DNA of 56,635 bases from Ignavibacteriota bacterium (GTDB lineage: Bacteria; Bacteroidota; Ignavibacteria; UBA10030): NCBI GenBank assembly GCA_003819715.1, contig RPQN01000017.1, positions 1-56,635 on the forward strand, read 5' to 3'. A program made the position numbers and the translations under genes. The notes beneath the pieces were generated by a model that was not told the origin of the DNA, ran no database searches, and saw only the letters and a program-made list of their open reading frames with translations. Positions 4,456 through 46,528 of the stretch are shown in pieces. How positions within the stretch are numbered: position 1 is the stretch's first letter; each line of letters opens with the position of its first letter.

Positions 4456-5019
4456 ATGTTCTTCTTTCTCTTGCTTGCACTCGTCATTATTCTTGCCGCC
4501 TTTGCCATTGGCGGATATAATTCTCTTATCCAGATTCGAAACCAGGTTCGGAACGCGTGGAAACAGATCGATATCCAGCTCAAACGCCGGCATGATTTGA
4601 TACCCAATCTTGTCAATGCCGTGAAAGGACAGATGGAATTTGAAAAAGGTACGCTGGAACGGGTCATCCAGGCGCGCGCCGCAGCGGTCGGGGCGCATTC
4701 GATTCCGGACAGCATGGCAAAAGAGGATGTCCTGTCGTCGGCGCTTTCCAAACTGTTAGCGGTCGTTGAAAATTATCCAACGCTGAAAGCGAACGAAAGC
4801 GTCGGGCCGCTGATGGAAGAATTGACGACCACCGAAAATCAAATCTCTTTCGCCCGTCAATTTTACAACGACATCACGACGAAATACAACACCAAATTGG
4901 AAATCTTTCCGACCAATCTCTTTGCATCGTCGTTCGGATTTAAGATGTTTCCCCTGTTCACCATCAAAGATGCCGGCGAACGGGAAACACCGACGGTGGA
5001 TCTTTCACTGAAAAATTGA
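4456..5019 (+). CDS. lemA: LemA family protein
   Basis: N-terminal TM segment, then GGYNSLIQIRNQVRNAWKQIDIQLKRRHDLIPNLV, the canonical LemA signature. Confidence 0.9.
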   Translation: MFFFLLLALVIILAAFAIGGYNSLIQIRNQVRNAWKQIDIQLKRRHDLIPNLVNAVKGQMEFEKGTLERVIQARAAAVGAHSIPDSMAKEDVLSSALSKLLAVVENYPTLKANESVGPLMEELTTTENQISFARQFYNDITTKYNTKLEIFPTNLFASSFGFKMFPLFTIKDAGERETPTVDLSLKN

Positions 5020-5074
5020 TCCAGAAGATAGAGTCCATCTTTACGATGGACTCTATCAAAAACCCGCAAATCCC

Positions 5075-6058
5075 ATGACAGAACCTTTTATTCTCCAGGC
5101 TCGTAATTTCTACGAACAGCAGGCGCACAATCGCCGGATGACGCTGGTCATCATGTCCGGGTTCGTTCTTCTCTTCGGCGCCATCGGCCTGGGGATTGAT
5201 TATTTTTATCTTGGTGTTTTTGAAGAAGGGTTCGTCCTTCCGCCGGTCTCCACCATCGCGGTGGTCATGAGTATTGCATTTGCGGTCGGATGCTTCAATG
5301 GCGGATCGTCTCTGGTTCTCAAAAGTACTGAAGCAGTTCAGGCAGATCCGATTCATCCTGAGAATCAACGGCTCCTGAATATTGTCCGGGAAATATCTCT
5401 TGCCTCCGGCCTGCCGGTACCCAGGGTCTACATTATTCCTGATGATGACCCGAATGCGTTTGCCACGGGGAAGAACCCTGATACCAGTTCTCTTGCCGTC
5501 ACCCGCGGTCTCCTGAATGTCCTGGATCGCGATGAATTGCAGGGGGTCGTCGCTCATGAAATGAGCCACATCCGGAATTACGATATCCGTCTGATGACGA
5601 CGGTTGCGGCGTTTGTCGGGATCATCGTTCTCCTCTCTGATGTCATGGTCCGCGGATTACGATTCGGCGGTTTGTCAAAGGGCCGCCGTTCGAAATCCGG
5701 CGGCTCGCTCGGCGCATTGTTATTTATTTTATGGATCATCGTGATGATTTTTGCTCCGCTGATCACGAGGATTATGGCGATGATGATATCGCGTAAACGG
5801 GAGTATCTTGCCGATGCCTCGGCAGCCGAACTGACACGAAATCCGATAGCTCTTGCGAATGCATTAAGTAAACTGGAAAACGCATCCGCTCCGACGAAAT
5901 CAATTAAACAGGGAGTGGCACATCTCTGTGTCGTCGATCCGGCGGGAAAATCGTTCAATGAAAAAGAAGGATTCTGGGCGGAACTCTTTTCAACCCACCC
6001 GCCGATGCAGAAGCGGATCATGTACCTGAAATCGATGGCGTATCAAAAATCCGGTTAA
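5075..6058 (+). CDS. M48 family zinc metallopeptidase (HtpX-like)
   Basis: Contains the HEMSHIRNYD zinc motif, DPNAFATG, a C-terminal REYLADASAAELT and THPPMQKR. Multiple TM segments. Confidence 0.9.
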   Translation: MTEPFILQARNFYEQQAHNRRMTLVIMSGFVLLFGAIGLGIDYFYLGVFEEGFVLPPVSTIAVVMSIAFAVGCFNGGSSLVLKSTEAVQADPIHPENQRLLNIVREISLASGLPVPRVYIIPDDDPNAFATGKNPDTSSLAVTRGLLNVLDRDELQGVVAHEMSHIRNYDIRLMTTVAAFVGIIVLLSDVMVRGLRFGGLSKGRRSKSGGSLGALLFILWIIVMIFAPLITRIMAMMISRKREYLADASAAELTRNPIALANALSKLENASAPTKSIKQGVAHLCVVDPAGKSFNEKEGFWAELFSTHPPMQKRIMYLKSMAYQKSG

Positions 6059-6066
6059 TACGGCCT

Positions 6067-7305
6067 ATGTCCGAACCTCTCCTGGCACATGCTCACAATA
6101 TTTATGAGCAGCAGACACATAATCGACGGATGACGTGGCTGCTCATTATCGCCTTTGTGGTCCTTATCGCGCTGGTTGGTGCAGGATTCGATTTCTTTTT
6201 CACCATAAATTCACCAGTTCGTTTTCTCATGCTTCCGTTTGTACTGCTCATGGTCGGTTCAGGGCTTTGGAACTTCAAGCAAAGGGCTGCAGCAGGGTTG
6301 TGGAAAGAACCAAGCAAGTTTGCTGAAGATGAAGACGACTTTTCACTCTTTAAATGGCTCTTCGCGTTTGGCATCCTCTCAATAATTATTCTTATGTACT
6401 TACCGGCTGTAATGTTTAAGCCTCATCTCATTGAAAATTTTTTTTCGTACACACTCAATCTTCCTCTCCTTCGTTATTTTCCTCTCGGAACAATCTTAGC
6501 TGTCATTATTGCTGTCGTTACCATCCTCACCAGTCTCCGCTGGGGAACGAACTCCGTGCTGTGGTCTGTCCATGCCGAGCAGCCGGATGAACAGGTATGC
6601 GATCTGCCGGAATTGCTGAACGTCGTCAAAGAGATGAGCCTTGCGGCGGGAATGCCGTCTCCTCCCAAAGTATTTATCGTACGGGATTCTGATCCGAATG
6701 CGTTCACTATTGGAACGACGGCAAGCGACAGTTCTCTTGTCGTTACGTCCGGATTGCTTCAACTGCTGGATCGGGAAGAATTACAGGGCGTCATCGCACA
6801 CGAAATGAGCCACATCCGGAATTCCGATACGCGCTTGATGACCATGATCACCATTCTTTTTGGTGCGGTGATCCTGCTTTCCGAGTGGATGAAGAAGTGT
6901 GCTCTTCTCGGCGGTTTTGCCGGAAGCCGTGTTCCCGGAGCGGGTTGGGCGCTGCGGGGGGTGCTGCTTATCGGCTGGCTTGTGACGCTGCTGCTGACCC
7001 CGCTGATTGCGCGCATTGTGGCGATGGCCGTCTCACGCCAGCGGGAATATCTTGCAGATGCAGGTGGAGCGGAATTGACTCGCAATCCGAAAGCACTGGC
7101 GAGCGCTCTTTTAAAAATTGAACAGGCAGCGGTGCCCACCACTTCTTTTCAAAAAGGCATTGCCCATTTGTGCGTCGTTGATCCCCTGGGGAAAAAAGTC
7201 AATTCAAAGGAGGGATGGTGGGCGAACCTCTTTGCAACCCATCCACCGATGAAGAACCGGGTGATGCTGTTGAATGCCATGGCGTATAACCAGAGACAAC
7301 TCTGA
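6067..7305 (+). CDS. M48 family zinc metallopeptidase (HtpX-like), paralog with N-terminal insertion
   Basis: Contains HEMSHIRNSD, DPNAFTIG, REYLADAGGAELT and THPPMKNR. It aligns with the upstream paralog by eye but has about 85 extra residues, including two hydrophobic segments and an EDEDD stretch. Confidence 0.9.
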   Translation: MSEPLLAHAHNIYEQQTHNRRMTWLLIIAFVVLIALVGAGFDFFFTINSPVRFLMLPFVLLMVGSGLWNFKQRAAAGLWKEPSKFAEDEDDFSLFKWLFAFGILSIIILMYLPAVMFKPHLIENFFSYTLNLPLLRYFPLGTILAVIIAVVTILTSLRWGTNSVLWSVHAEQPDEQVCDLPELLNVVKEMSLAAGMPSPPKVFIVRDSDPNAFTIGTTASDSSLVVTSGLLQLLDREELQGVIAHEMSHIRNSDTRLMTMITILFGAVILLSEWMKKCALLGGFAGSRVPGAGWALRGVLLIGWLVTLLLTPLIARIVAMAVSRQREYLADAGGAELTRNPKALASALLKIEQAAVPTTSFQKGIAHLCVVDPLGKKVNSKEGWWANLFATHPPMKNRVMLLNAMAYNQRQL

Positions 7306-10050: not shown

Positions 10051-10605
10051 ATGAAAGAGAAGATACAGCTTATCGCCGAGCGGATCAGGGAGTTACGGGA
10101 AATTTCCGGTCTTTCCGCTTCGGCTCTGGCTCAAGAACTTGAAATTCCTTTGGAGGTCATACTTCAGTATGAGAGCGGAACGGTTGATATTCCCGTCGGA
10201 TTCCTGTATAAGGCAGCGCATAAATTCGGCATTGAACTGACTGCACTCCTCACCGGAGAAAATCCCAGGCTCCATGTGTATTGTGTCGTTCGCAAAGACC
10301 ATGGATTGAGCGTGGAACGAAGAAAGCAGTACAAATACGAAAGTCTTGCTTTTAATTTTATCAACAAAAAAGCGGAGCCGTTTGTCGTCAAAATTGATCC
10401 GGAACCCGAATCCGCACCGGTGGAATTTAATTCGCATCCCGGGCAGGAGTTCAATTATGTAATCGATGGAACGTTGAAGATTATTATTGATTCCCACGAA
10501 GTGATATTGAATCCGGGAGATTCCATCTATTTCGATTCCGCCTGCCAGCATGCCATGAAAGCGATGAATCAAACCCCGGTAAAGATGCTCGCGGTCGTTT
10601 TATAA
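10051..10605 (+). CDS. XRE-family HTH plus cupin domain transcriptional regulator
   Basis: N-terminal HTH_3-like segment [33 protein letters not shown]-terminal cupin segment ([12 protein letters not shown] ... [12 protein letters not shown]). Start taken at the ATG at 10051. Confidence 0.85.
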
Positions 10606-10627
10606 CCATAAGATTAAAGAGAACCGT

Positions 10628-12283
10628 ATGCTTGATCATTTCCTTTCTCAAACAGATTTTCAATCCTATAAGGAATTTTACGAGAAGTTCGAAATCCGTA
10701 TCCCGGAAGATTTCAATTTTGCATTCGATGTCGTTGACGAGACCGCACGCCGCACACCCGGGAAGACAGCCATGGTCTGGTGCGACGACAAGGGAGGGGA
10801 AGCGACATTCACCTTCGGGCAGATGAAACGCTTCAGCGACAAAGCGGCAAATTTCTTCAGGTCGATCGGCATCCGCAAAGGAGATCCGGTCATGCTGATC
10901 TTGAAGCGCCGATATGAGTACTGGTTCTGCACACTGGCGTTAAACAAAATCGGCGCGATCACAATCCCTGCAACGCATCTTCTGAGTACGAAAGATATTG
11001 TCTATCGAAACAATGCTGCGGATATAAAAATGATCGTCAGTGTTCCGGATTCCGAAGTCCTCCGCCATGTGGAAGAAGCGGAAGCGAAATCGCCGACACT
11101 CCGGCAGAAGGCGGTCATCGGCACGACGCGTCAAGGCTGGTTGAACTTCACGGAGGAAATGGAAAAAAGTCCGGAGACGTTCGTCCGGGCCGATGAAGAT
11201 AAAACGTCCATCAAAGACACGATGCTCCTTTATTTTACATCCGGCACGACCGGGATGCCCAAAATGGTGAATCATAACTTTGCCTATCCGCTCGGACATA
11301 TTCTCACTGCAAAATACTGGCAATACGTTCAGGAGGACGGCCTTCATTTTACCGTCGCGGATACCGGCTGGGCAAAATCAGCCTGGGGGAAAATATACGG
11401 TCAATGGATTTCGGGCTGCGCCGTGATGACGTACGATTACGACAAATTTGTTCCGCGGCACCTCATGAAAGTCATTGAAAAATATCACGTGACCTCTTTT
11501 TGCGCGCCGCCGACCATCTATCGATTTTTAATAAAAGAAGATTTGAAACAATACGATTTGAAGCATTTGCACTATTGCGTCGTTGCCGGTGAACCGTTAA
11601 ATCCGGAGGTCTATAAACAATTTCTTGAATCGACGGGCATCCGGCTCATGGAAGGATACGGGCAAACGGAATGCACGGTCGCCGTTGCAACCTATTCGTG
11701 GATGGAACCCAAACCCGGATCCATGGGAAAACCCTCGCCGGGATATGATATCGACCTCATTGACATGGACGGCAAAGTCTGCGAAGTGGGGGAAATCGGG
11801 CAGATCGTTATTTATACTGCAAAAAGAAGACCGGTGGGGATGTTCGACGGATATTTCCGGGATGAAGAGCTGACAAAAAAAGTCTGGCAAAACGGTATCT
11901 ATTATACGGGTGATACCGCATGGCGCGACGAGGACGGGTATTACTGGTTTGTCGGGAGGGCCGACGATATTATTAAAAGTTCCGGCTACCGGATCGGCCC
12001 GTTCGAAGTGGAAAGCGCTCTCCTGGAACATCCGGCAGTATTGGAATGCGCCATCACGGCGGTCCCCGATCCTGAACGCGGTCAAATTGTGAAGGCAACG
12101 GTTGTCCTGGCGAAAGAGTTTCTGCCAGGCGATAAATTGGCAAGAGAATTGCAGGAGCACGTCAAGAAAGTCACCGCCCCGTATAAATACCCGAGGATTG
12201 TGGAGTTTGTCACAGAACTTCCGAAAACGATCAGCGGGAAAATACGCCGTGTGCAAATCAGAGGTGAGGAGAGCAGCGAATAA
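10628..12283 (+). CDS. AMP-forming acyl-CoA synthetase (medium-chain type)
   Basis: Contains [11 protein letters not shown] (AMP-binding motif), GYGQTE, YYTGD, and C-terminal [11 protein letters not shown]. Confidence 0.9.
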
Positions 12284-12414
12284 CCGATGGCCGTTCTGGA
12301 TCATGCTCCCCGCAATACGAGATGTCTGCCGGCAGAGCGCCATGGACGGCAGGTGAAACTTTTATTCTCATCACCTCAATCATGGTGTTTATCTCCGAAG
12401 AAGGGAAAATCCAT

Positions 12415-12852
12415 ATGACGGAAATGCAAATTACGTATCGCGGAGTGGTTCATCCTTGGCATTGCGATATCATGGGCCATATGAATGTGGTCTGGTACGT
12501 CAGTAAGTTTGATGAAGCTGCATGGCAGTTTGCTGCCATGATGGGTCTGGATAATTCGTATTTTATTAAGAAGCATATGGGAATTGCGGCAGTTCAACAG
12601 AACATCACCTATAAATCAGAGATCACTGCCGGCAGCGCTGTGACCGTGCGCTCCGGCGTGCTTGAAATAAAAGAGAAAACAGTGCGCATCGTTCATGAAA
12701 TGCGCAACGATTCGACGGGTGCCGTTGCCGCGGTGATGATATTGACGGTCGTCCATTTTAATACTCAAAAAAGAAAATCCTGCCCCCTGCCGGCAGATAT
12801 ACGGAAACGGGGAAACGAATTCATGGTGCAATACGATGGTGTGGAGAGATAA
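12415..12852 (+). CDS. Acyl-CoA thioesterase, 4HBT/YbgC-like hotdog fold
   Basis: RGVVHPWHCDIMGHMNVVWY is typical of 4HBT thioesterases. GAAGAAGGG lies upstream of the ATG at 12415; the ORF-track start of 12322 is probably an over-extension. Confidence 0.85.
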   Translation: MTEMQITYRGVVHPWHCDIMGHMNVVWYVSKFDEAAWQFAAMMGLDNSYFIKKHMGIAAVQQNITYKSEITAGSAVTVRSGVLEIKEKTVRIVHEMRNDSTGAVAAVMILTVVHFNTQKRKSCPLPADIRKRGNEFMVQYDGVER

Positions 12853-12922
12853 AGGGCCCGCTGCTTTCCGCTTGAATAATTTCCACTGAATAGTCCGCAC
12901 ATCCCTGGATGGAAAAATCAAA

Positions 12923-13624
12923 ATGAATGTACATTATTTTCAGCATGTACCGTATGAAGGACTGGGGAGTCTTGAGCCTTGGTTGAAGTCAGCATCTGCC
13001 CGGATTACCGCAACAAAATTTTATGAAAACACGTATCTCCCTAATATCCGCGATATCGATTGGCTGATCGTCATGGGCGGACCGATGAGTGTCAATGATG
13101 AACGGCGGTATCCGTGGCTGGCTGCAGAAAAAAAATTCATTGCTGACGCAATAGCAAACGGGAAGATTGTTTTCGGGGTGTGCCTCGGTGCCCAGTTAAT
13201 TGCACGTGCGCTGGGAGCCCGCGTGTATCCGAATCGCCATCGTGAAATTGGATGGTTGCCCGTTGAAGGGGTTGCACCGGGAAAGACATCAGCCCTTGGT
13301 ACTCTTATCCCTTCGCCGATGAATGCGTTTCATTGGCATGGAGAGACGTTTGATCTCCCTGAGCATGCAATTCATCTTGCACGAAGTGAAGGCTGCGAGC
13401 ATCAGGCCTTCTGTATCGGTGACCGGGTGTTGGGGCTGCAATTCCATCTTGAAGCCACACCGGTCATGGTCAGATTGCTGCTCGATCAATGTCCAGACGA
13501 TCTCATTCCGGGGCCGTACGTTCAAAACGGGGAAGAGATGCTCTCTAACCCTTCGCGGTTTCAGAGCATCAATGCAGTAATGGATGCAATTCTTGAATAC
13601 TGGAACGGTCCGGGTTCAAGATAA
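12923..13624 (+). CDS. Class I glutamine amidotransferase (GuaA-N-like)
   Basis: Contains the GVCLGAQL nucleophile elbow and a later HWHGETF / FHLE segment. Confidence 0.85.
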   Translation: MNVHYFQHVPYEGLGSLEPWLKSASARITATKFYENTYLPNIRDIDWLIVMGGPMSVNDERRYPWLAAEKKFIADAIANGKIVFGVCLGAQLIARALGARVYPNRHREIGWLPVEGVAPGKTSALGTLIPSPMNAFHWHGETFDLPEHAIHLARSEGCEHQAFCIGDRVLGLQFHLEATPVMVRLLLDQCPDDLIPGPYVQNGEEMLSNPSRFQSINAVMDAILEYWNGPGSR

Positions 13625-23505: not shown

Positions 23506-24723
23506 TTGAAAAAGGAAAGAATTGCTGTCGCATACTCAGGCGGACTTGATACGTCGGTCATTGTAAAATGGCTGCAGGAAAAATATAATGCCGATGTGAT
23601 CACCGTGACTGGAGATTTGGGCCAGAAAAAAGAGCTCGTCGGCGTGAAGGAAAAAGCCATCAAGACCGGCGCAAAAAAGGCCTATGTTCAGGATTTGCGG
23701 AAAGAATTCGTCGAGGAATATATCTGGCCGTCCTTGAAAGCCGGAGCGCTGTATGAATATAACTATCCGATGGCGACGGCCATCGGCCGCCCGCTGCTTG
23801 CGAAATCACTGGTGGAAGTCGCCTTGAAAGAGGGATGCACTGCGGTCGCACATGGCTGCACCGGGAAAGGAAACGATCAGGTTCGTTTTGAAGTCGCCGT
23901 TGCGGCGCTCGCTCCGGAATTAAAAGTTCTGGCGCCGGTGCGCGAATGGGAATTCAAATCCCGTGAAGAGGAAATCGCGTATTGCGAAAAGTACGACATT
24001 CCGGTGTCCGCAACAAAAAAGAATCCTTATTCCATAGACGAAAATCTTTGGGGCACTGCGATCGAATGCGGTGTGCTGGAAGACCCGATGGTCGAGCCGC
24101 CCGCCGATGCGTATCAACGCACCGTTCCTGCAAATTTGGCGCCCGATGAACCGACCTATGTCACCATCGAATTCGAACTTGGCGTTCCGGTGAAATTGAA
24201 CGGCAAGAAAATGAGCGGTCCGGATCTCATCGATCGCCTCAATGAAATTGCCGGAGCCAACGGCGTCGGCAGGCTGGACCTCATCGAGAACCGGCTCGTC
24301 GGTATTAAATCCCGCGAAGTGTATGAAGCACCTGCAGCAACGGTCCTGCATTTTGCCCACCGTGAACTCGAGCGGCTGGTCCTGGATAAAGACACGGCGC
24401 ATTTCAAATCCAAGCTTGCCAGCGATTATGCCGATATGATTTACAACGGCCTGTGGTTTACGCCGCTCAGGGTTGCAATGGATGCGTTTATCAACGAAAC
24501 GCAAAAAGTAGTTACCGGATTGGTGAAAGTGAAACTCTACAAAGGCAATCTCGATATCGCAGGGCGCAAATCTCCTTCTTCGCTCTACGACACGAAGCTT
24601 GCAACGTATACCGAAGAGGATTCCTTCGACCACAAAGCGAGCGTCGGTTTCATCAAAATCTACGGCCTGCCAATAAAAACATTCTATCAGGTCAACAGGG
24701 GTTTGCTGAAGAAGAAAAAATAG
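23506..24723 (+). CDS. argG: Argininosuccinate synthase
   Basis: Contains AYSGGLDTS (ATP pyrophosphatase motif), [14 protein letters not shown] and [14 protein letters not shown]. Apparent TTG start. Confidence 0.95.
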
Positions 24724-24728
24724 CACCT

Positions 24729-24755
24729 GTAGCCGAGGTCGACGACCTCGGCTAC
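24729..24755. repeat. Perfect 13-bp inverted repeat centred on GTCGAC
   Basis: GTAGCCGAGGTCG-A-CGACCTCGGCTAC, located 6 nt after the argG stop. Confidence 0.85.
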
Positions 24756-24772
24756 AATATTAATCATATTAT

Positions 24773-24809
24773 CCCCATTGTGTGAACACACGGTGGGGAT
24801 TTTGTTTTT
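24773..24809 (+). terminator. Rho-independent terminator after argG
   Basis: CCCCAUUGUGUG-AA-CACACGGUGGGG forms a 12-bp stem including two G-U pairs. It is followed by AUUUUGUUUUU. Confidence 0.7.
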
Positions 24810-24901
24810 AGCAGACGCAAAAGCTTTACTTTGGTCGGTTGCATTCTCTTAAGAAAACTGATACATTCACTATATACTTCACACCTGAAATACAAAAACG
24901 A

Positions 24902-25864
24902 ATGTCCACATCAAAGAAAATCAAAAAGAAGCATATTAATCTTGAAGAAAAAAAGATTACACTTGTAAAGTCACGAGTTGCAGATCAGAATGCTATATTT
25001 CGCGTAAATGTATCATCTACTCATTCTTCTCTCCCGCTAAATTCAATAATATATGGCGATGCCTTACAAGTTCTTCAAAGTTTTCCTGATCATTTTATCG
25101 ATTTTATAGTGACATCTCCACCTTATGCTGATAAACGAACAAACTCTTACGGTGGAATTCACCCTGATAAATATGTTCAATGGTTCTTACCGATTTCAAG
25201 CGAGCTTAAAAGAGTACTGAAACCATCTGGTTCATTCATCTTTAATATTAAAGAAGGGGTTTCGGATGGAGAAAGACAGACATATGTTCTTGAACTTATT
25301 CTTGAAATGAAAAAACAAGGATGGTTATGGACAGAAGAATATATATGGCACAAAAGGAATAGCTATCCAGGGAAATGGCCCAATAGATTCCGAGACGCTT
25401 GGGAGCACTGCTATCAATTCAACAAAGAAAAAAAGTTCTCTATGTATCAAGAAAATGTAATGGTTCCAATGGGTGATTGGGCAAAAACTCGCTTAAAAAA
25501 ACTTAGTTCAACTGATAGACGGAGAGATGAATCAAAGGTTGGAAGTGGATTTGGAAAGAATATTTCTAATTGGGTCGGTCGAAAATTGGCGTATCCTGAT
25601 AATGTGTTGCATTTAGCCACTGAATCGTCCAATAAAAATCACAGCGCAGCCTTTCCTACTTCGTTGCCTGAATGGTTTATTAAGCTTTTCACAAAGCCGG
25701 AAGATATTGTTCTTGATCCATTTCTTGGATCAGGCAGTACGGCTGTTGCTGCAAAAAGGACTGGCAGAAGATATATCGGTATTGAAATATTAAAAGAGTT
25801 TTGCCAAATAGCAGAACAACGTGTAAAAGATGAACCATCCAACGGGGAAGACTTATTCAAATGA
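24902..25864 (+). CDS. Beta-class DNA methyltransferase (SPPY motif, probably N4-cytosine) of a type II R-M pair
   Basis: VTSPPYADKR (motif IV) precedes DPFLGSGSTAVAAKRTGRRYIGIEI (motif I), the beta-class order. The gene is very AT-rich. Start taken at the ATG at 24902; the ORF-track TTG is at 24839. Confidence 0.85.
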   Translation: MSTSKKIKKKHINLEEKKITLVKSRVADQNAIFRVNVSSTHSSLPLNSIIYGDALQVLQSFPDHFIDFIVTSPPYADKRTNSYGGIHPDKYVQWFLPISSELKRVLKPSGSFIFNIKEGVSDGERQTYVLELILEMKKQGWLWTEEYIWHKRNSYPGKWPNRFRDAWEHCYQFNKEKKFSMYQENVMVPMGDWAKTRLKKLSSTDRRRDESKVGSGFGKNISNWVGRKLAYPDNVLHLATESSNKNHSAAFPTSLPEWFIKLFTKPEDIVLDPFLGSGSTAVAAKRTGRRYIGIEILKEFCQIAEQRVKDEPSNGEDLFK

Positions 25865-26601
25865 AAAAAATATCTTTAACAGATGTTGAAAATTATGTAA
25901 ATGAAAATATTGGTGCATTTCATGAAAACCGTGTAAACATCCTTAAGAAGATTAAACTCAATCAAGTCTTGCAGAAAAAGAATCCCTATCTTTTCAAGGC
26001 AAAAAATCTTCTTACAGCAGAAAGATTGGTCGAATCTGTTTTACAAGCATATCTTTCCTCCTCAGAAGAAGAACTTTTTGGCGAATTCCTTGAAGAATTA
26101 GCAATTTTTATAGCGAGTAAAACACTGGGTGGCCGAAAAGCTCATGGTTCAGGAATTGATTTAGAATTTAAACGAAGCAAAGTAATCTACCTTGTGTCTA
26201 TTAAGTCTGGCGTAAACTGGGGAAATAGTTCGCAATATAAAGCATTAAGGGACAATTTTAAAAAAGCGGTACAAATTTTAAAACAATCAAAATCTATTAA
26301 GACGGTACAGCCGGTTCTTGCATCTTGTTATGGAAAAAGAAAAACAATAGATAATGGCGAGTACTTAAAAATCTGTGGACAGGAGTTTTGGTACTTTATC
26401 AGCGGGAACAGAGAACTCTATACCGACATCATCGAACCCATAGGACATCACGCAAAAGAACACAATCAGCATTATGAAGAAGAACGTGCGGTCCTCATAA
26501 ATAAATTTACGGCAGAGTTTTCCAGTGAATTTTGTGTAGACGGAAGAATAGATTGGAAAAAGCTCGTTCAATTTAATAGTGGTAATTCTAAAATGACTTA
26601 A
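25861..26601 (+). CDS. Probable type II restriction endonuclease
   Basis: The ATG overlaps the methylase stop (ATGA). Composition matches the AT-rich methylase gene. It has a PD-(D/E)xK-like GIDLEF ... YLVSIKSG segment. I recall the KKNPYLFKAKN segment from several type II nucleases, but the family is not assignable without a search. Confidence 0.6.
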   Translation: MKKISLTDVENYVNENIGAFHENRVNILKKIKLNQVLQKKNPYLFKAKNLLTAERLVESVLQAYLSSSEEELFGEFLEELAIFIASKTLGGRKAHGSGIDLEFKRSKVIYLVSIKSGVNWGNSSQYKALRDNFKKAVQILKQSKSIKTVQPVLASCYGKRKTIDNGEYLKICGQEFWYFISGNRELYTDIIEPIGHHAKEHNQHYEEERAVLINKFTAEFSSEFCVDGRIDWKKLVQFNSGNSKMT

Positions 26602-38991: not shown

Positions 38992-39548
38992 ATATTTTCA
39001 GCGACAGCGTGTCATCTCCCCTTTTCTCCTCCAGCATCCGTTAAAAAGCTCAACGTTACCCATCCATCATAAATTCTGCGTAACTTGTGACTACATTTTT
39101 CTCGCATGTTTGGTATTGTGCCCGCCGTTCGATTCATGCACCATTCCTCCTTTCGTCAATTGAGAAAATTTTGCGATTTCAAAATCCGTCCGGCGGTAAC
39201 TCTTCAGGGTAAAGGCATCCATGAATTTCAGCTCAATCTCTTTATGAGGTTATCGATGCCATGCATGCACCCGGTTGTGAGATCGAATATTCTCTTCGTG
39301 CATGCTTCTTGACATTCAGCCGAATTATTTCGAACATTCAAAGAGGAAATCCAGGGAGACTATCAGAAAAATCCTATAAAATTTCAATTGCATGCAACAA
39401 TTCGTTTGTTGAAATTACAGGCCGCTGGTTCCCGATCGATGCGCGGGGGAGGGTTTCTCGGGGGCTTGATATATAACACATGAACTTTCAGTACAAAGCA
39501 GTATAATAGAGTGTCTTGTCATTGAAGAAATTGAAGAAGGAGAGGTCT

Positions 39549-41990
39549 ATGGAACGTAGAATTGTTCTCTGCGCCATGCTGGCGATGAGCATCGCCGCAT
39601 CTCTGACCTATGCGCAGCAGGCAGACCCGAGTTCTTTGAACACCGGCGGCCAGGAAATATATGTCGAGCCGCTTCAATCCCTGGATGCGGCGAAAACATC
39701 TATCGATCTCTGCGCGATCTCGTTGAAATCGAATGTCGTCGTCACTCTTTCGTCTGAAGGGATTATCAAACTTTACGATCTCCCGACACTGAAAGAGAAA
39801 ACAGCACTTGCCGCCATCCCCGTCCACGTGAATACCTTCGCGTTTTCCGCCTCCGGCCAAACACTGGCTCTCGGAGCTGCAGATGGAAAGGCATACCTGT
39901 TCAATATTAATGCTCCAACCAGTCCCAAGAAATTATCTCCCCATTCGCTGGGGATTACCTCCATGGCGTTTCAGGGTGAGAATTGGATGTTCACCGGAGG
40001 TTTTGATAAGAAAGCGGTTATCACAGAAACAACGAACGGCGATGTGCTGGGAACGCTGCCGGATTTTCAGGAAGATGTGAGTGCGCTGGCGGTTCATCCC
40101 ACCGCAAAGCTATTCGCCGTGGGATTGTCTTCCGGCACGATTCAACTGTATGCGGTGGCAAAAATGGAGCTTCAAAAAGCCCTCACCGAAAGCAGAAATA
40201 AAATTTCATCCATGAGTTACAGTGTTGATGGAAAATTCCTTGCCGCCGGGGCCGTCGATGGCAGTGTGTACCTCTGGGATATGCAAACCGGTGCCCTGAA
40301 AATACGATATTCCCAGAAAGGGATGATTGCATCCGTATCCTTCGATCCGAAGTCACGCTGGCTCGTTTCCGCTGCATCAGACAGTTCTCTGAGATTTCTT
40401 GATGTAGCATCGCTTGCCACGGTCAAAACGATGGTGGAACGGGACGGCCGCACCACGTTTGCAGGATTTATAAACGACGATATCCTTCTTACCAGTACCA
40501 GCAAGGGAAAACTGAAAAGCTGGAAAATCGCATTAGCCCCGCCGGACACCACCAATCCGGGTATCGTATTGGAGAACACGGCGGATAGTACGGTGATCGC
40601 CAAAGTGTTCGGCAAAGAGTATGAAATCCGCGGCGTGATTTATGACGATAATGAATTGAAAGATCCCGTGATCAACGGAAAACCGCTTTCGCTGGCTCCG
40701 CTCGGAACCAATACCACGGTCAAAATTCCGGCGGGCATGAAGGCGGTAAAACAATTCAGCACCGTGCTGAAATTAGATTCCGTTGGCCTGATCCCGTTTG
40801 AAATCAACGCGGCAGACAATGCGAAACATATAACCCGCACAAGCGGATTTGTTCAGCGCCTCTCAAATGATCAGGCGGTGGAAGTCGAATATCCACTTCT
40901 GAATTCTGAAACGGACGCCATGTCCGTCCCGGTAAAATTCCGGACATGGTTTGATGTCGGTTCGTATTCGATCTCGGTGAACATGGTGGATATCGTGAAC
41001 GGCCAGGTGCCGGAATTCAAAGTTGCCGGCGATGTCATTGCGGATGAAGTACCGCTGGTTGCCGGATATAATCAGATTCAAATTTCCATCACGAGTAAAA
41101 ACGGTGAACGGTTTTCCAAAACGATCGGCATTAACCGGAAAGCATCGATTCTCGGTGCAGGCACTTTTGCTGCGGATGGCGGTGCAAAGAAACAGCGTGT
41201 TGCGGGCGCCGGTCCGCAGGCGTGGGCAGTGGTCGTTGGTGTTTCGGAATATCAGAGTGCTGGAATTCCAAGCTTGAAATACGCCGATAAGGATGCAGAA
41301 GCGCTCGCAAATTTCCTTCGCCGTCCGGAAGGCGGGGGATATGACTCCAACCATATGCTCGTGTTATTGAATAAAGATGCAACGTTGGCAAACTTACGGC
41401 AGGCATTGATCACGTTCCTTAATCAAGCGATCGACATGGACCTGGTCATTATCTATTTCGCGGGTCATGGCGCCTCGGATCCGGCGAAGCCGAAAAATAT
41501 GTACTTGCTGACCAATGACAGCGATCCCAACACGCTCGGCACCACGGCATTTCCCATGTGGGATATTCAAACCGTACTGGCACGGTACATCAGTGCAAAA
41601 CGCGTTGTGGTCTTTACCGATGCGTGCCACAGCGGCGGTATCAGTGTGAACTTTGCAACACGCGGGCTGGGGGAAACGGAACCCAATTTGGTCAACCAGT
41701 ATATCGCGGATCTTTCGAAAACGAAGGAGGGGATTGTCGTTTTTACCGCGAGTGCAGCTGGTGAAGTATCGCAGGAGTTTCCGGAATTTTCTCATGGGGC
41801 ATTCACCTACTATCTCCTGGAAGGGATGGCGGGCAAAGCCGACGAAAACAACGATTACACGGTCACGATCAATGAACTGATGCAGTACGTCGAAGAGCAG
41901 GTCAAGCGCAAGACGCACGGCGCACAGAACCCGACCCGGAGTCAAACCGAGTTCGATAAAGAGATGACGATTTCGACTATTCCTCATTAA
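39549..41990 (+). CDS. Secreted WD40-repeat protein with C-terminal caspase (peptidase C14) domain
   Basis: AAGGAGAGG SD and a signal peptide (MERRIVLCAMLAMSIAASLTYAQQ). About 7 WD40-like blades (e.g. GSVYLWDM, SSLRFLD). The caspase domain starts at AWAVVVGVSEYQ. The His is in IIYFAGHGAS (codon 41466-41468) and the Cys in FTDACHSGG (codon 41625-41627). Confidence 0.85.
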   Translation: MERRIVLCAMLAMSIAASLTYAQQADPSSLNTGGQEIYVEPLQSLDAAKTSIDLCAISLKSNVVVTLSSEGIIKLYDLPTLKEKTALAAIPVHVNTFAFSASGQTLALGAADGKAYLFNINAPTSPKKLSPHSLGITSMAFQGENWMFTGGFDKKAVITETTNGDVLGTLPDFQEDVSALAVHPTAKLFAVGLSSGTIQLYAVAKMELQKALTESRNKISSMSYSVDGKFLAAGAVDGSVYLWDMQTGALKIRYSQKGMIASVSFDPKSRWLVSAASDSSLRFLDVASLATVKTMVERDGRTTFAGFINDDILLTSTSKGKLKSWKIALAPPDTTNPGIVLENTADSTVIAKVFGKEYEIRGVIYDDNELKDPVINGKPLSLAPLGTNTTVKIPAGMKAVKQFSTVLKLDSVGLIPFEINAADNAKHITRTSGFVQRLSNDQAVEVEYPLLNSETDAMSVPVKFRTWFDVGSYSISVNMVDIVNGQVPEFKVAGDVIADEVPLVAGYNQIQISITSKNGERFSKTIGINRKASILGAGTFAADGGAKKQRVAGAGPQAWAVVVGVSEYQSAGIPSLKYADKDAEALANFLRRPEGGGYDSNHMLVLLNKDATLANLRQALITFLNQAIDMDLVIIYFAGHGASDPAKPKNMYLLTNDSDPNTLGTTAFPMWDIQTVLARYISAKRVVVFTDACHSGGISVNFATRGLGETEPNLVNQYIADLSKTKEGIVVFTASAAGEVSQEFPEFSHGAFTYYLLEGMAGKADENNDYTVTINELMQYVEEQVKRKTHGAQNPTRSQTEFDKEMTISTIPH

Positions 41991-42011
41991 ATTGTAGAAA
42001 GGAACCACCAC

Positions 42012-42707
42012 ATGCGATTCTTCATTCTTCTTGTAATTCTCCTGGGTTGTTTCGCAGTTGGATTTCGATCCAGCGATCAACCGGCGCCGGCCGTCCCCGC
42101 GGTTCAGCAAAACGAAGCGAACATCGGATTTGAATGGGCATTCGGTGCCCTCGTGGGAAAAGAAAAAACGATGGTCCCCGTGACACACGATACGACCCTG
42201 AAGACCGGGGATGAAATTAAAATGATGGTAAAGCTGACCAAAGATTGTTACGTGTATGTGATTTATCAGGGTTCAAAGGGCGAAGTGAACCTACTCTTCC
42301 CGTATGAGATCCGGCAGTTCCAGGCCGACTACAAAGCCGAGAAAAATTATTATGTCCCCAAAGGCCGTCCATGGATTGCCCTTGATAAAAACACGGGAAA
42401 GGAAGTTTTTTTCCTGGTCGCCTCTACGGAACGGCTGCTCGATCTGGAAGTGAAACTCGGCAATTACTTGTCTGCCGACGATACAAAAAAACAGCTCCTC
42501 GCCGGTGACGTCATATCGGAGATACGCAGCGTGCGAAAACGTTATTCAACATTTTCAACGCTTGCTGAAAAACCGGTCACGATCGGAGGAAATATCCGGG
42601 GCACCGAGAAGGTGGAAAAGGCACGCCGTCCGGACGTCGCAACCATCGCCACACAGATCAGCGCCAACAACTTCTACAGTAAAACGATCACTATTGACCA
42701 CCAGTAA
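42012..42707 (+). CDS. DUF4384 domain protein, probable lipoprotein
   Basis: Lipobox-like LLGC at residues 10-13. GDEIKMMVKLTKDCYVYVIYQGSKGEVNLLFPY matches the DUF4384 core pattern. It starts 21 nt after the caspase gene. Confidence 0.75.
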   Translation: MRFFILLVILLGCFAVGFRSSDQPAPAVPAVQQNEANIGFEWAFGALVGKEKTMVPVTHDTTLKTGDEIKMMVKLTKDCYVYVIYQGSKGEVNLLFPYEIRQFQADYKAEKNYYVPKGRPWIALDKNTGKEVFFLVASTERLLDLEVKLGNYLSADDTKKQLLAGDVISEIRSVRKRYSTFSTLAEKPVTIGGNIRGTEKVEKARRPDVATIATQISANNFYSKTITIDHQ

Positions 42708-42729
42708 AAAAAGAACGTTGAGGGACACG

Positions 42730-44682
42730 ATGATCATCATCGTGTCCTCCTTTTTGTTCGGACATCTGATCTTCTGGCTGCTTCCAAGTGTATTTGAAAC
42801 ATGGAACTCCCAGGCATTTGACCAGATATTTGTACTGCGTACAAAATATTTTCCTTCCTCCACTCCATACGATAGCACCATTGTCCACGTCAGCGAGACG
42901 GACAGCAGCAAACAGGCAATGTCGGGTGGAACGTATGTTGCCCGTTCACAATATGGACAGATCGTCCGTAATTTAGGCGAAGTGGGTACGGCAGCACAAA
43001 TCTGGGATTATTTTTTCTTGTATAAAGATCCTACAGATCCGAGGGAAGACTCCATATTCATCGCTTGTAATAAAGCTGCCGGTAATGTGTATTATGGAAT
43101 GTATTTCGATTTAAAAGACAAACCGCTTCTCTCAAAGCAATCTCGTCCGGCTTCTCATCTGGAATACCTCTCCTCGACAAAATGGCAAGTAAAAGTAGAG
43201 GGTGATATAAGTAAAATGTATGTTGGAGAAAACCCGGTCATCACCTATCCGGAGGTCGCCTCGGTAATTCGTGGACAAGGGTATCTGAGCTTAAGACAGG
43301 ATCCCGATGGTGTTTTTCGCCGTGCGCCTCTTCTTATTCGCTATGACGATGCTTTTTACCCAAGTTTTCCGTTCAGGACAATTTGCGATTATCTCCATGT
43401 TGCGCCCGACCGAATTATTCTTCATCCAGGAAAAAGCATTACACTTCAAGGCGCATACCGTCCCGGTGCAAAACCGCATGACATAGTCATTCCTGTGGAT
43501 GAACGATGCAATATTATCGTCAATTTTGTTGGACCCTGGGGCACCATGATCGATTACAAAACGGTGCAAATTTACAATTTGTCGAATGACCGTGATGCAA
43601 TGGAATATGATTGGAAACCTCTCCTGCAGGGTAAAATTGCCGTTGTGAATGAAGCTTCAACGGGTGCAACCGATATTTATTCGGTACCGACAGACGTGAA
43701 GTACCCGCTGGGCGGATTGCATGCAAATGTTATGAATACAATCCTTACAGAAAACTTTTTGCAGGAAGCGAGTTCAACTGAAAAAATTGGAATTGAATTT
43801 TTGCTCCTTATTGCCATTGGACTGCTTGCAGTAAAATTCAGCTCTCGCGGATTATGGCTGGGTGCCCTGGCACTCTTGATTGGTTATATTGCGTTCATTA
43901 TCGCGGCATTTCTGTACGGTAACCTGATCATCAATATTGTACGGCCTATTCTTATCACAGGAACCGCAGTGTTTTGTGTGCTGGTCTATCGATTTATCAA
44001 TGAAGAACGGGAAAAAGAAGCAACGCAAAGATCGTTTGAAGCATATTTGCCGCCGTCGGTGGTTAAACGCCAGCTGGCACATCCGGAATCTATCTTCGAG
44101 GTCCAGAAAAAAGAACTTACGATCATGTTTACCGATATCAAGAGTTTTACAACCTATTCTTCTACCATGACGCCGGATCAAATTCAAAATTTTCTTGCTG
44201 AATATTTTGATGCAATGGTTCAAATCGTTTTCAAATACGAAGGTACAGTCGACAAATATATCGGAGATGGGCTGATGGTGTTCTTCGGCGCTCCTGAACC
44301 GCAATCTGACCATGCCGTACGCGCCGTAAAAGCAGGTATCGAGATGCAGTTAAAATGCCGTGAGCTGAAAGAGAAATGGGTGAAAGAAGGATTGTTCCCG
44401 TTAAAAATCCGGGTCGGCATCAATACGGGCGAGGTGGTGGTGGGCAATATGGGGACGAGAAAAAAACTCGCCTATACTGTACTCGGCTCGGATGTGAACC
44501 TCGCCAACCGTCTCGAATCCAACGCACCGGTTGAAGGGATTATGATTTCACGCCGCACATACGATTTGGTAAAAGACCATGTGACGACGCTCCCGCATGA
44601 ACCGGTGCTGGTCAAGGGTCTTGATACCCCGATTGAAGTGTATACCGTCCCGGTCGAGGATGCCGTTCCGCCTCTCGCTTGA
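42730..44682 (+). CDS. CHASE2 sensor domain-containing class III adenylate/guanylate cyclase
   Basis: N-terminal TM segment, about 330 aa of extracytoplasmic CHASE2-like region, and 3-4 further TM segments. The cyclase domain has TIMFTDIKSFT, DKYIGDGLMVFFGAP and RVGINTGEVVVGNMG. The ORF-track start of 42505 overlaps the upstream gene, so I took the ATG at 42730. Confidence 0.85.
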   Translation: MIIIVSSFLFGHLIFWLLPSVFETWNSQAFDQIFVLRTKYFPSSTPYDSTIVHVSETDSSKQAMSGGTYVARSQYGQIVRNLGEVGTAAQIWDYFFLYKDPTDPREDSIFIACNKAAGNVYYGMYFDLKDKPLLSKQSRPASHLEYLSSTKWQVKVEGDISKMYVGENPVITYPEVASVIRGQGYLSLRQDPDGVFRRAPLLIRYDDAFYPSFPFRTICDYLHVAPDRIILHPGKSITLQGAYRPGAKPHDIVIPVDERCNIIVNFVGPWGTMIDYKTVQIYNLSNDRDAMEYDWKPLLQGKIAVVNEASTGATDIYSVPTDVKYPLGGLHANVMNTILTENFLQEASSTEKIGIEFLLLIAIGLLAVKFSSRGLWLGALALLIGYIAFIIAAFLYGNLIINIVRPILITGTAVFCVLVYRFINEEREKEATQRSFEAYLPPSVVKRQLAHPESIFEVQKKELTIMFTDIKSFTTYSSTMTPDQIQNFLAEYFDAMVQIVFKYEGTVDKYIGDGLMVFFGAPEPQSDHAVRAVKAGIEMQLKCRELKEKWVKEGLFPLKIRVGINTGEVVVGNMGTRKKLAYTVLGSDVNLANRLESNAPVEGIMISRRTYDLVKDHVTTLPHEPVLVKGLDTPIEVYTVPVEDAVPPLA

Positions 44683-44746: not shown

Positions 44747-45634
44747 ATGCCCAACATGAGTAATCCGAAACTTCATATCAAAGGAAAATATTGGTCGGCA
44801 GACGATGGATTCCGCTACTGTGAATCCATCGCCCGCAGCCACTATGAAAATTTTCCTGTCGCGTCGCATTTTGTTCCAAAAGAAATACGCAAATACGTCT
44901 GGACCATTTATGCCTTTGCGCGCATCGCAGATGATTATGCAGATGAGCCCGGGTTTACCATCGCCGAACGGATGGATAATCTGAATCAATGGGACCAGTA
45001 CCTCGACGAATGTTATGACGGCAACCCGGCGCACCGCGTGTTCGCTGCTCTTGCAGAGACGGTGGAACGATTTCAAATTCCGCGTGAATTATTGCAGAAT
45101 CTCCTTACGGCATTCCGCTCGGATGTCACCGTCAAGCGGTATGAGACCTATGAAGAGGTCCTGGCCTATTGCCGCAACTCCGCCAACCCCATCGGGAGAT
45201 TGCTCCTGCTGCTCTTTAATTATCGCAGTGAATCGTTGCTCCACCTGTCTGATTCCATATGCACCGCACTGCAGCTGACAAATTTTTGGCAGGATGTTTC
45301 GCTCGATCTGCTCAAAGACCGTATTTATCTTCCGCTGGAGGAAATGGAGGAGTTCGGCTATACCGAACAGGAGTTGATCGGCCGGATCGTAAACGACCAT
45401 TTTCGCGATTTCATGGCATTCCAAGTCAGGCGCACCGCGGATCTTTTTGTTGAAGGAAAACCGCTCCTTTCGATGGTGGGGAAGGATTTATCACTGGAAT
45501 TGAAGCTGACCTGGAACGGCGGGACGAGAATTCTTCAAAAAATACACCAGCAGAATTACGACGTGCTGTCCAAGCGTCCGTCATTATCGAAACTGGACAA
45601 GCTGGGACTACTCTTTCGTTCATTTTTATCGTAA
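44747..45634 (+). CDS. hpnC: Squalene synthase HpnC (squalene/phytoene synthase family)
   Basis: YCESIARSHYENFPVAS ... IYAFARIADDYADE fits the HpnC N-terminal signature. Confidence 0.75.
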   Translation: MPNMSNPKLHIKGKYWSADDGFRYCESIARSHYENFPVASHFVPKEIRKYVWTIYAFARIADDYADEPGFTIAERMDNLNQWDQYLDECYDGNPAHRVFAALAETVERFQIPRELLQNLLTAFRSDVTVKRYETYEEVLAYCRNSANPIGRLLLLLFNYRSESLLHLSDSICTALQLTNFWQDVSLDLLKDRIYLPLEEMEEFGYTEQELIGRIVNDHFRDFMAFQVRRTADLFVEGKPLLSMVGKDLSLELKLTWNGGTRILQKIHQQNYDVLSKRPSLSKLDKLGLLFRSFLS

Positions 45635-45643
45635 CTTAGATCT

Positions 45644-46528
45644 ATGCCAACAGCCGCATCGGTCATACCGGACTTCTCGCAGAATCGGAAGAGCAGTTTT
45701 TATTACTCCTTCCTTATCCTGCCGCGCCCGAAGCGCGATGCGATCGAAACGATTTATGCCTTTTGCCGTTTCACCGACGATATTGTCGATGAAGCCGGGG
45801 ACGAAAAAGAAAAACATGCATTGCTCCTGCAGTGGACGGAGGAACTGAAGCGTTCATTGTACGGAGTCTCGCGTTATTCTCTGCTGAATAAACTTTCCGC
45901 CATCATCCAGCGGTTCCATATCCCGATTGAACATTTTTATGAATTGATTAAGGGGATGGAAATGGACCTGCTCAACACGCGGTACGGAACATTTCATGAA
46001 CTCGAGCAATACTGCTACCGCGCCGCATCCACCGTCGGATTGATCTGCGCGGAAGTATTCGGTTACAAGAATGAAAAGACGAAGCAGTACGCCATCAACC
46101 TCGGCATCGCGCTGCAGCTCACGAATATTCTGCGGGATATCAAAGCCGATGCCAAGCGCGGGCGTATTTATCTGCCGCTGGAAGATTTGAGAACGTTCGG
46201 GTATTCTGAAAACGATCTGCTCAACTGCACCTATGACGAACGATTTGTGAGCCTGATGAAGTTCGAATGCGACCGTGCTCATGAATATTTTCACCGGGCA
46301 AAGGCATGCCTCGCGGAGGAGGATAAACCGCTCTTCACCGCCGCGCGCACCATGGGGAATATCTATTATTTGCTGCTCCTCAGAATTGAACGCGCGCAGT
46401 ACGACGTCTTTTCCAAGCGTATTCGATTATCATCGCCGCTCAAGATCCTCGTTGCGATGGTCCTTCAGCTCAGGAAAAATTTTCCGAAAAATTTCCACCG
46501 GTATGTCCATACGGAACTGCCGGCATAA
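45644..46528 (+). CDS. hpnD: Presqualene diphosphate synthase HpnD (squalene/phytoene synthase family)
   Basis: SSFYYSFLILPRPKRDAIETIYAFCRFTDDIVDE fits the HpnD signature. A second Asp-rich region lies near NILRDIKADAKRGRIYLP. Confidence 0.75.
   Translation: MPTAASVIPDFSQNRKSSFYYSFLILPRPKRDAIETIYAFCRFTDDIVDEAGDEKEKHALLLQWTEELKRSLYGVSRYSLLNKLSAIIQRFHIPIEHFYELIKGMEMDLLNTRYGTFHELEQYCYRAASTVGLICAEVFGYKNEKTKQYAINLGIALQLTNILRDIKADAKRGRIYLPLEDLRTFGYSENDLLNCTYDERFVSLMKFECDRAHEYFHRAKACLAEEDKPLFTAARTMGNIYYLLLLRIERAQYDVFSKRIRLSSPLKILVAMVLQLRKNFPKNFHRYVHTELPA

Follow-up and report, generated by a model that had tools for sequence, protein, structure and literature searches.

What is a secreted caspase homologue doing next to a membrane-bound receptor cyclase? 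The question is raised by three genes in a stretch of 56,635 nucleotides (nt) from an Ignavibacteriota bacterium (assembly GCA_003819715.1, contig RPQN01000017.1, forward strand), which we refer to as the window. Gene 1 (39549-41990) encodes a secreted protein of 813 amino acids (aa) with WD40, Ig-like and predicted caspase (Peptidase C14, metacaspase-type) domains, gene 2 (42012-42707) a periplasmic DUF4384-family protein of 231 aa that is probably membrane-tethered, and gene 3 (42730-44682) a predicted CHASE2 receptor adenylate cyclase of 650 aa; all three lie on the + strand. CHASE2 domains are among the commonest extracytoplasmic sensor domains in bacteria, bacterial caspase homologues are numerous with roles that have mostly been guessed as cell death, and we know of no function assigned to DUF4384. 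The triad ties these three open questions together.

Here we demonstrate an obligatory genomic partnership between the gene-2 family and one clade of CHASE2 receptors, and we show that a secreted, active-site-intact metacaspase-type protease is the usual third member of the pair. As for the mechanism, we infer an envelope signalling unit, to which we assign a probability of roughly 45%, in which the caspase would cut the gene-2 protein, acting as a co-receptor, at Arg196 and the CHASE2 cyclase would change its synthesis of cyclic AMP (cAMP).

The three genes are linked across phyla

The genes are tightly packed, with spacers of 21 nt (genes 1 and 2) and 22 nt (genes 2 and 3) that each hold a purine-rich ribosome-binding stretch, and no promoter-like site was found between them. 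This layout of open reading frames (ORFs) bears out a preliminary description of the DNA, which had reported three same-strand genes behind a 557-nt gap, and the separate transcripts that it had raised as a possible objection find no support. In close relatives, where the orthologues share 53-83% identity with genes 2 and 3, the triad is kept; the nearest are metagenome-assembled genomes named Bacteroidota, Ignavibacteriales or Ignavibacteriota. Such conservation alone proves little, because within the window's own lineage the flanks (rarA upstream, two SQS_PSY genes downstream) are syntenic as well, as would be expected of chance neighbours or of lineage-specific synteny without a functional link. 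In one of the related loci, which we number from L001 onwards, the triad is however kept between different flanks (L005; a TPR protein, trigger factor and ClpP upstream, DUF4199 downstream), and it therefore moves as a unit.

We looked at linkage from both ends of the gene pair. In the forward direction, the query was an alignment of gene 3 with 31 diverse CHASE2 cyclases, headed by a relative of 32% identity and drawn from a set that shares 29-47% identity with gene 3. Run against a single genome for each species, it returned 80 loci from many phyla; neighbours were detected by six-frame searches with gene-2 family and caspase profiles. A gene-2 relative lies directly upstream and on the same strand in 13 of the 80, and the 11 loci that ranked highest are all among them. 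By taxonomy, the 13 belong to Ignavibacteriota/Bacteroidota (L007, L011, L013, L021), Spirochaetota (L008, L015, L016, L017), Deltaproteobacteria-type genomes (L009, L010, L012), Neomarinimicrobiota (L026) and an unclassified bacterium (L014). A caspase adjoins 7 of the 13 gene-2-bearing loci, compared to none of the 67 others (Fisher p = 5e-7). The distant, mostly proteobacterial CHASE2 cyclases have other partners, among them FHA, PP2C, class II cAMP phosphodiesterase, Crp, NHL/TPR, and SH3_3 with M48 proteins. When the CHASE2 domains were placed on a neighbour-joining tree, the receptors with a partner fell into one clade of 19 tips, where they account for 17, and one of the two exceptions, L019 (Nitrospirales), has a divergent DUF4384 protein of 373 aa upstream of its CHASE2 cyclase.

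In the reverse direction, metagenome contigs were scanned with an alignment of 10 gene-2 relatives, which again gave 80 loci. A CHASE2 gene follows directly downstream in every one of the 67 loci that extend at least 300 nt in that direction, and a cyclase domain was seen in 31 of the 36 with at least 2200 nt. Upstream, a secreted caspase is present in 27 of the 31 loci with at least 2600 nt (approximately 87%). The invariable pair is thus gene 2 and CHASE2. The receptor output can differ: in L100 (809-2935) and L164 (1066-3243), the gene directly after the gene-2 relative encodes a CHASE2-SpoIIE (PP2C-type phosphatase) receptor, and in L019 a CHASE2-sigma54 activator (10148-12967) follows the CHASE2 cyclase that the DUF4384 gene precedes. 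Since the CHASE2-SpoIIE receptors and the L019 arrangement keep the partner, the partner goes with the sensor domain and not with the output.

Taken together, the three families co-occur far beyond chance and across phyla, the outcome of the neighbourhood statistics that the preliminary description had proposed. The comparative data contradict an accident of gene order, to which we assign a negligible probability: the unit persists with different flanks and in unrelated phyla, with different caspase architectures and even with a different receptor output, and the adjacency of gene 2 and CHASE2 has no exception among the 67 reverse loci.

Two further sets of neighbours came up in these scans. 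In Gallionellaceae and relatives (L054, L063, L065, L067, L071), a PP2C phosphatase, an FHA protein, a cyclase and a class II cAMP phosphodiesterase form a conserved group, which is a different, self-contained cAMP module. An SH3_3 protein and an M48 metallopeptidase lie downstream of the CHASE2 cyclase in L033, L037, L078 and L082, and an S8 subtilase (4494-7100) lies beside the CHASE2 cyclase of L014; these hint that the pairing of CHASE2 receptors with envelope proteases may extend beyond the caspase case.

Gene 3 is a predicted adenylate cyclase

All of the domains named in the preliminary description (Peptidase_C14, WD40, DUF4384, CHASE2 and Guanylate_cyc) were recovered with Pfam models. 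In gene 3, the periplasmic CHASE2 domain (42769-43827; aa 14-366) scores 97.2 bits against PF05226, for which the cut-off is 26.3. By hydropathy, one transmembrane (TM) segment precedes it (42730-42786; aa 1-19) and three follow (43786-44001; aa 353-424), and the class III cyclase domain (Guanylate_cyc; 44107-44643, aa 460-638) comes after these, so that the proposed arrangement of a CHASE2 domain between TM segments and a class III cyclase with both metal-binding aspartates holds.

The nearest solved relative of the cyclase domain is CyaB of P. aeruginosa (3r5g; E 1e-43). Alignment with CyaB places the metal-binding Asp residues (FTDIKSF, IGDGLM) and the Asn/Arg pair (VNLANRLES) in catalytic positions, and the specificity pair, Lys (DKYIGDG) and Thr (YTVLGS), matches CyaB residue for residue. 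In the guanylate cyclase Cya2, the two specificity positions are occupied by Glu and Gly. Because gene 3 has Lys/Thr at these base-specifying positions, it is predicted to be a class III adenylate cyclase with cAMP as its product. The preliminary description had left the output as cAMP or cGMP; these residues point to the former. The gene may start slightly upstream of the annotated position, at a TTG (42718) that is in register with the GTG start of the orthologues and would give a protein of 654 aa and a spacer of 10 nt. In L001 (8707-10666, on a 1.1-Mb contig), the gene 3 orthologue is called as two genes, for a CHASE2 protein of 301 aa and a cyclase of 316 aa, a division that is either genuine or caused by a frameshift or by faulty assembly.

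We also asked what the CHASE2 domain itself might resemble. Its AlphaFold2 model (mean predicted local distance difference test, pLDDT, 83) has no fold match in the PDB with an E-value below 0.39, and the sequence has no credible PDB relative, the two matches (NusG/Spt5, E 0.15) being at chance level. The idea that CHASE2 has a caspase-like or other known fold that pairs with the protease was therefore rejected, as neither fold nor sequence comparison with the PDB supports it.

Gene 1 is an exported caspase homologue with an intact active site

Gene 1 starts with a signal peptide (39549-39614), recognised as a single N-terminal hydrophobic segment that ends in TYA, followed by QQ. Next is a seven-blade propeller (39627-40538; aa approximately 27-330), matched by Pfam beta-propeller/WD40 models and with seven blade-end motifs readable in the sequence, and then a beta-rich middle region (40539-41189; aa 330-547) that has weak Ig-like matches only (Glucodextran_B, E 0.004). 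The C-terminal caspase domain (41190-41987) scores 81.6 bits against PF00656 (Peptidase_C14; cut-off 21.4, E 9e-23) over aa 559-804. His640 lies in the motif AGHG (aa 638-641; 41460-41471) and Cys693 in DACHSGG (aa 691-697; 41619-41639), and in an alignment with Arabidopsis metacaspase-4 (6w8s) both motifs fall on its catalytic His and Cys. The architecture proposed from the letters, with a signal peptide, about seven blades, a beta-rich middle and an intact His/Cys dyad, is therefore confirmed, and the dyad is where a working protease needs it.

The same His and Cys, together with an Asp two residues before the Cys, are present in all 48 unique caspases of triad-type loci. In metacaspases, an Asp at this position accompanies Arg/Lys specificity at P1. 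On these sequence features, gene 1 is classed as a Peptidase C14 protein of the metacaspase/orthocaspase type, and cleavage after Arg or Lys is predicted.

Among the gene 1 orthologues, the caspase domain is the most conserved part of the alignment, far better conserved than the propeller. More widely, signal peptides start all caspases that were checked among the related loci, and their accessory domains vary: WD40 in 13 loci, FGE-sulfatase in L010, L012 and L087, TPR plus Ig-like in L133 and L143, and Ig-like alone in L091 and L152. Because of this variation, the caspase domain is the constant part of the gene 1 family and WD40 is not. The WD40 array that had been proposed as part of the module is real in gene 1, but its place is taken elsewhere by FGE-sulfatase, TPR or Ig-like domains. 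That all associated caspases keep an intact active site, and that those checked have signal peptides, argues for a direct role of the protease.

The unit is not a described defence system

A caspase beside a cyclase invites comparison with anti-phage or programmed-death systems of the Pycsar or caspase-conflict type, in which a cyclic nucleotide would be the alarm and the caspase the executioner. Several models do respond: the cyclase domain matches the PADLOC PycC models (best E 1.8e-30, partial), gene 1 matches the PADLOC 'caspase' model, and the NCBIfam model for EACC1-associated caspases (NF047832) gives 119.8 bits. The PycC matches, however, span the generic class III fold only, and the purine-type Lys/Thr pair is that of adenylate cyclases. 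No effector or cyclic-nucleotide-binding gene is present in the window, so that Pycsar membership was rejected. The EACC1-associated caspase conflict system was rejected as well, since the NF047832 score is below the cut-off of 140 bits and there is no EACC1 or NTPase partner gene nearby. In addition, an exported caspase cannot reach cytoplasmic targets.

The surroundings point the same way. Upstream of the triad are ddl, DivIC/FtsB and MgsA/RarA, and downstream are two SQS_PSY (squalene/phytoene synthase) genes, a MerR regulator and an ABC-F ATPase, all of which are housekeeping genes. No NTPase, nuclease or toxin genes lie beside the triad, in agreement with the preliminary description, which had noted the absence of a STAND NTPase, effector nuclease or toxin. 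The GC content of the locus is similar to that of the remainder of the window, and within the lineage the unit is inherited together with its flanks. We consider a defence function very improbable, and the triad is not a member of any described defence system.

Gene 2 carries a near-invariant arginine in a flexible loop

The DUF4384 beta-sandwich of gene 2 (42198-42431; aa 63-140) scores 64.7 bits against PF14326 (cut-off 27). Hydropathy shows a single N-terminal hydrophobic segment. The protein had been described as a lipobox-bearing DUF4384 protein; the family assignment stands and an LLGC motif is present, but lipoprotein status is doubtful. The Cys of the motif falls within the hydrophobic core and is missing from many orthologues, so that gene 2 lacks the conserved lipobox Cys ending the signal peptide that marks a lipoprotein, and only 10 of 82 N-termini in the family are lipobox-like, most being ordinary signal peptides. 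The gene-2 protein is periplasmic, with a membrane tether possible in the window's lineage, and probably not a lipoprotein.

In the AlphaFold2 model (pLDDT 78), a beta-sandwich (aa 38-138) is followed by a helical hairpin (143-179), by two low-confidence segments (182-187 and 193-203), the latter of which contains Arg196, and by a C-terminal pair of confidently modelled strands, with the conserved ITIDHQ at their end. Alignments and the low-confidence segments together define a conserved flexible loop (42555-42620). Few positions are invariant in the family across phyla. Arg196 (42597-42599; motif TIGGNIRG) is one of them, within the family motif AE(K/R)P(V/I)xIGGxxRG, and its equivalent is present in 89 of 90 unique gene-2 relatives. 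Because it is conserved, flexible and carries a basic residue, the loop is a candidate protease site or reactive-site loop, and the near-invariant Arg fits a metacaspase P1 site.

The second of these options deserves attention, since an invariant Arg in an exposed conserved loop is also typical of canonical protease inhibitors. The gene-2 protein could be a tether or standard-mechanism inhibitor of the caspase, with the Arg loop as a reactive-site loop that fills the active site and keeps the protease bound at the receptor. Something else would then be the real substrate (CHASE2 itself, or an incoming foreign or envelope protein), and release of the protease would be the signal. DUF4384 is often fused to protease domains, and the large, variable binding domains of the caspase could hold other substrates. 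Gene 2 is nevertheless tied more tightly to CHASE2 (67/67) than to the caspase (27/31), and at the sequence level an inhibitor looks the same as a substrate. We regard the inhibitor as an unlikely explanation, and cleavage of the loop as the better candidate.

Searches of the PDB with gene 2 returned no sequence relative and, by structure, only non-significant Ig-like matches (MD-1, RhoGDI; E 0.03-0.3). A plasmid collection used as a context sample gave one weak CHASE2 match and no DUF4384 match. A second DUF4384 subfamily, of about 300-370 aa, is found in other envelope signalling contexts, either in the order C14 caspase, LPP20-like protein, DUF4384 and Ser/Thr kinase, or as DUF4384 followed by a TPR-CHAT protease (L168, 2261-7524; L169, 4081-8330; L170, 5001-9402; L167, 5001-8254). 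It seems that DUF4384 generally accompanies proteases of the caspase fold.

A proposed mechanism and the evidence against it

In the mechanism that we favour, the gene-2 protein would be a periplasmic co-receptor seated on the CHASE2 domain. Guided by its variable accessory domain (here the seven-blade WD40 propeller), the caspase would bind the gene-2 protein at its exposed, conserved loop and cut after Arg196. The cut would remove or rearrange the C-terminal strands of the gene-2 protein and thereby change the state of CHASE2, and this change would pass via the three-helix membrane segment to the cyclase dimer, with altered cAMP synthesis as the result. The overall logic would be that of a protease-activated receptor with cAMP output. 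The preliminary description had suggested a protease-to-cyclic-nucleotide module of this general kind; its three-gene unit, the linkage and the catalytic residues are now observed; the direction of the signal, the role of gene 2 as a substrate and recognition by WD40 are proposals.

Several points weigh against this mechanism. The caspase and gene-2 profiles were built from the same loci, so that very divergent members may escape, and the metagenome loci are not phylogenetically independent. Approximately 13% of the reverse loci have no nearby caspase; the pair of gene 2 and CHASE2 can therefore work without an adjacently encoded caspase. The Arg196 equivalent is also present in loci that lack an adjacent caspase (L104, L128, L141, L145, L021, L026), and it could therefore serve CHASE2 binding rather than cleavage. 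No cAMP receptor (Crp/cNMP-binding protein, where cNMP is cyclic nucleoside monophosphate) was found in the window by phmmer. Finally, the direction could be reversed, with cAMP controlling secretion or expression of the protease.

The caspase-less loci are also what would be expected if gene 2 and CHASE2 were a two-protein sensor of a non-protein cue, such as a small molecule or an envelope state. The caspase would then be a modulator at most, for example one that resets or adapts the signal by taking away the co-receptor, or it would be co-regulated with a separate function. L016, L021 and L026 add to the loci with a pair but no adjacent caspase, and the Ig-like sandwich of gene 2 weakly resembles lipid- or ligand-binding folds in the matches given above. 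Such a sensor does not readily account for the strong enrichment of caspases at gene-2/CHASE2 loci (p = 5e-7), nor for active sites that are intact in all associated caspases and signal peptides that are present in all those checked. We find a caspase-independent sensor improbable, and favour the proteolytic mechanism.

A conserved hairpin at the start of gene 3

Across the start of gene 3, the RNA can form a hairpin of 12 bp with a 3-nt loop (42722-42748, + strand), followed by CCTTTTTGTT. It was flagged by a terminator scan, occupies codons 2-11 and has a T-rich stretch after it. Folds of the same position in related loci give a hairpin at the equivalent site with a different sequence. Over 20 sequences (the window, L001, L003, L005, L006, L011, L110, L112, L118, L136, L139, L144, L149, L153, L154, L156, L157 and L161-L163), the stem covaries strongly: 92% of cells are paired and 9 of the 12 pairs have changed on both sides, one pair position occurring as A-U, C-G and U-A. 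None of 500 shuffles reaches the observed values, and slid controls give 32-54%. No Rfam family corresponds to the hairpin. It may couple the translation of gene 3 to that of gene 2, or cause partial termination of transcription. In both cases the receptor would not exceed its partner in amount, and the hairpin probably serves to keep receptor levels below, or coupled to, those of the gene-2 protein.

Upstream region and neighbouring genes

A gap of 557 nt (38992-39548) separates the rarA-like gene from gene 1 and probably comprises the promoter and 5' leader of the latter. The longest ORF in the gap has 71 aa, with no relative found. Against Rfam, nothing reaches the gathering score, and at E <= 1 the only match is a chance-level plant microRNA model (E 0.09), so that a riboswitch or other known RNA was rejected for want of a credible match. 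The sole part of the gap that is conserved in related loci is the block 39308-39402 (blastn; 74% over 95 nt in L001 and 91% over 33 nt in L153). With a TTGACA at 39309, this block is a possible promoter or operator, approximately 200-240 nt upstream of gene 1. In L003, the interval between rarA and gene 1 holds an ORF of 102 aa, for which a comparison by eye only showed no homologue among the small-ORF translations of the window.

Downstream, the two squalene/phytoene synthase genes (44747-46528), of the HpnC/HpnD kind, begin 64 nt after the cyclase gene, without a terminator-like site. The order of cyclase and two synthases is kept in L001, L003, L006, L011 and L013 and is not found in L005; it could reflect co-transcription or mere lineage synteny. 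Further away in the window, a type II restriction-modification pair (24839-26601), consisting of an N6/N4 DNA methylase and an EcoO109I-type endonuclease, sits in the lowest-GC stretch (0.416 over 24001-26000) and is flanked by genes for argininosuccinate synthase and an AMIN-amidase. This pair is probably an inserted cassette.

Relation to known systems

A close parallel on the receptor side is in S. meliloti, where the CHASE2 cyclases CyaD1, CyaD2 and CyaK respond to a plant protein via the outer-membrane protein NsrA (PMC13001267). The view taken in the preliminary description, that no ligand is established for CHASE2, is partly outdated by this protein-signal pathway. Like gene 3, the three cyclases consist of a TM segment, CHASE2, three TM segments and a class III cyclase, with cAMP as the output, and as proposed for the triad a protein signal is perceived in the envelope through an accessory protein. 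In S. meliloti, however, the accessory protein is an outer-membrane beta-barrel and the cue a plant ribosomal protein, whereas the triad has a periplasmic DUF4384 protein and a secreted caspase. There is no beta-barrel (NsrA-type) gene among the flanks of the operon; this concerns the locus only, and an NsrA homologue elsewhere in the genome was not searched for.

On the protease side, the CHAT protease Csx29 has Csx30 substrates, some of which carry DUF4384 at the C-terminus, and DUF4384 is often fused to proteases (bioRxiv 10.1101/2022.08.17.504292). In this type III-E CRISPR system, Craspase, a caspase-fold protease cuts a dedicated partner, whose C-terminal domain is sometimes DUF4384, to give a signal. 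Craspase differs from the triad in being cytoplasmic and RNA-guided, with a CHAT-type protease and a sigma-factor switch as output; the parts of the triad that precede the membrane are all periplasmic, no CRISPR genes are adjacent, and the predicted output is cAMP. A C14 caspase domain and a CHASE2 sensor are also linked in the metacaspase-CHASE2 fusion protein of Trichodesmium erythraeum (PMC3501461, PMC2853523). There the caspase is the cytoplasmic output of CHASE2, whereas the triad has a separate, exported caspase on the sensing side and a cyclase as output.

Genome surveys have catalogued WD40-, FGE-sulfatase- and TPR-metacaspases (orthocaspases) (PMC3501461, PMC7475262). In these surveys, the combination found in gene 1, WD40 with a C14 domain and a His/Cys dyad, is listed, DUF4384 is among the domains joined to proteases, and cell death is mostly discussed, whereas the triad caspases are exported and tied to a receptor. 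An operon that joins a DUF4384 protein to a CHASE2 receptor is absent from the parts of PMC3501461 and PMC7475262 that were searched. In a limited literature check, the sole DUF4384 paper that also mentions CHASE2 names the two only as domains fused to cyanobacterial orthocaspases, and has no such operon. Regulated proteolysis in the envelope is familiar from DegS-RseA and SpoIVB/CtpB-SpoIVFA, and outside bacteria from animal protease-activated receptors. In all of these, as proposed here, an extracytoplasmic protease cleaves a protein that is bound to a receptor, and the cleavage is sensed across the membrane; they use serine proteases, act on sigma factor release or G proteins, and have no homology to the triad. 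The single domains and the WD40-caspase architecture are thus known already, and we judge the triad to be a new form of receptor-cyclase signalling.

For CHASE2, one signal pathway is partly known, and a PDB relative is absent by sequence or predicted fold in the copy that we searched. A stronger version of our proposal is that the triad is a true bacterial protease-activated receptor, in which the metacaspase-cut DUF4384 co-receptor, or a released C-terminal peptide ending in TIDH-x, is itself the ligand of CHASE2. This version is doubtful. If true, it would give the first defined ligand class for CHASE2, a non-lethal signalling role for bacterial caspase homologues that is conserved in at least 4 phyla, and a receptor family with interchangeable outputs (cAMP, a PP2C phosphatase and possibly sigma-54 activators). 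If the mechanism proposed here holds, caspase-type regulated proteolysis would join the routes by which bacteria pass information across the inner membrane, in a system whose recognition domain and output domain can each be swapped.

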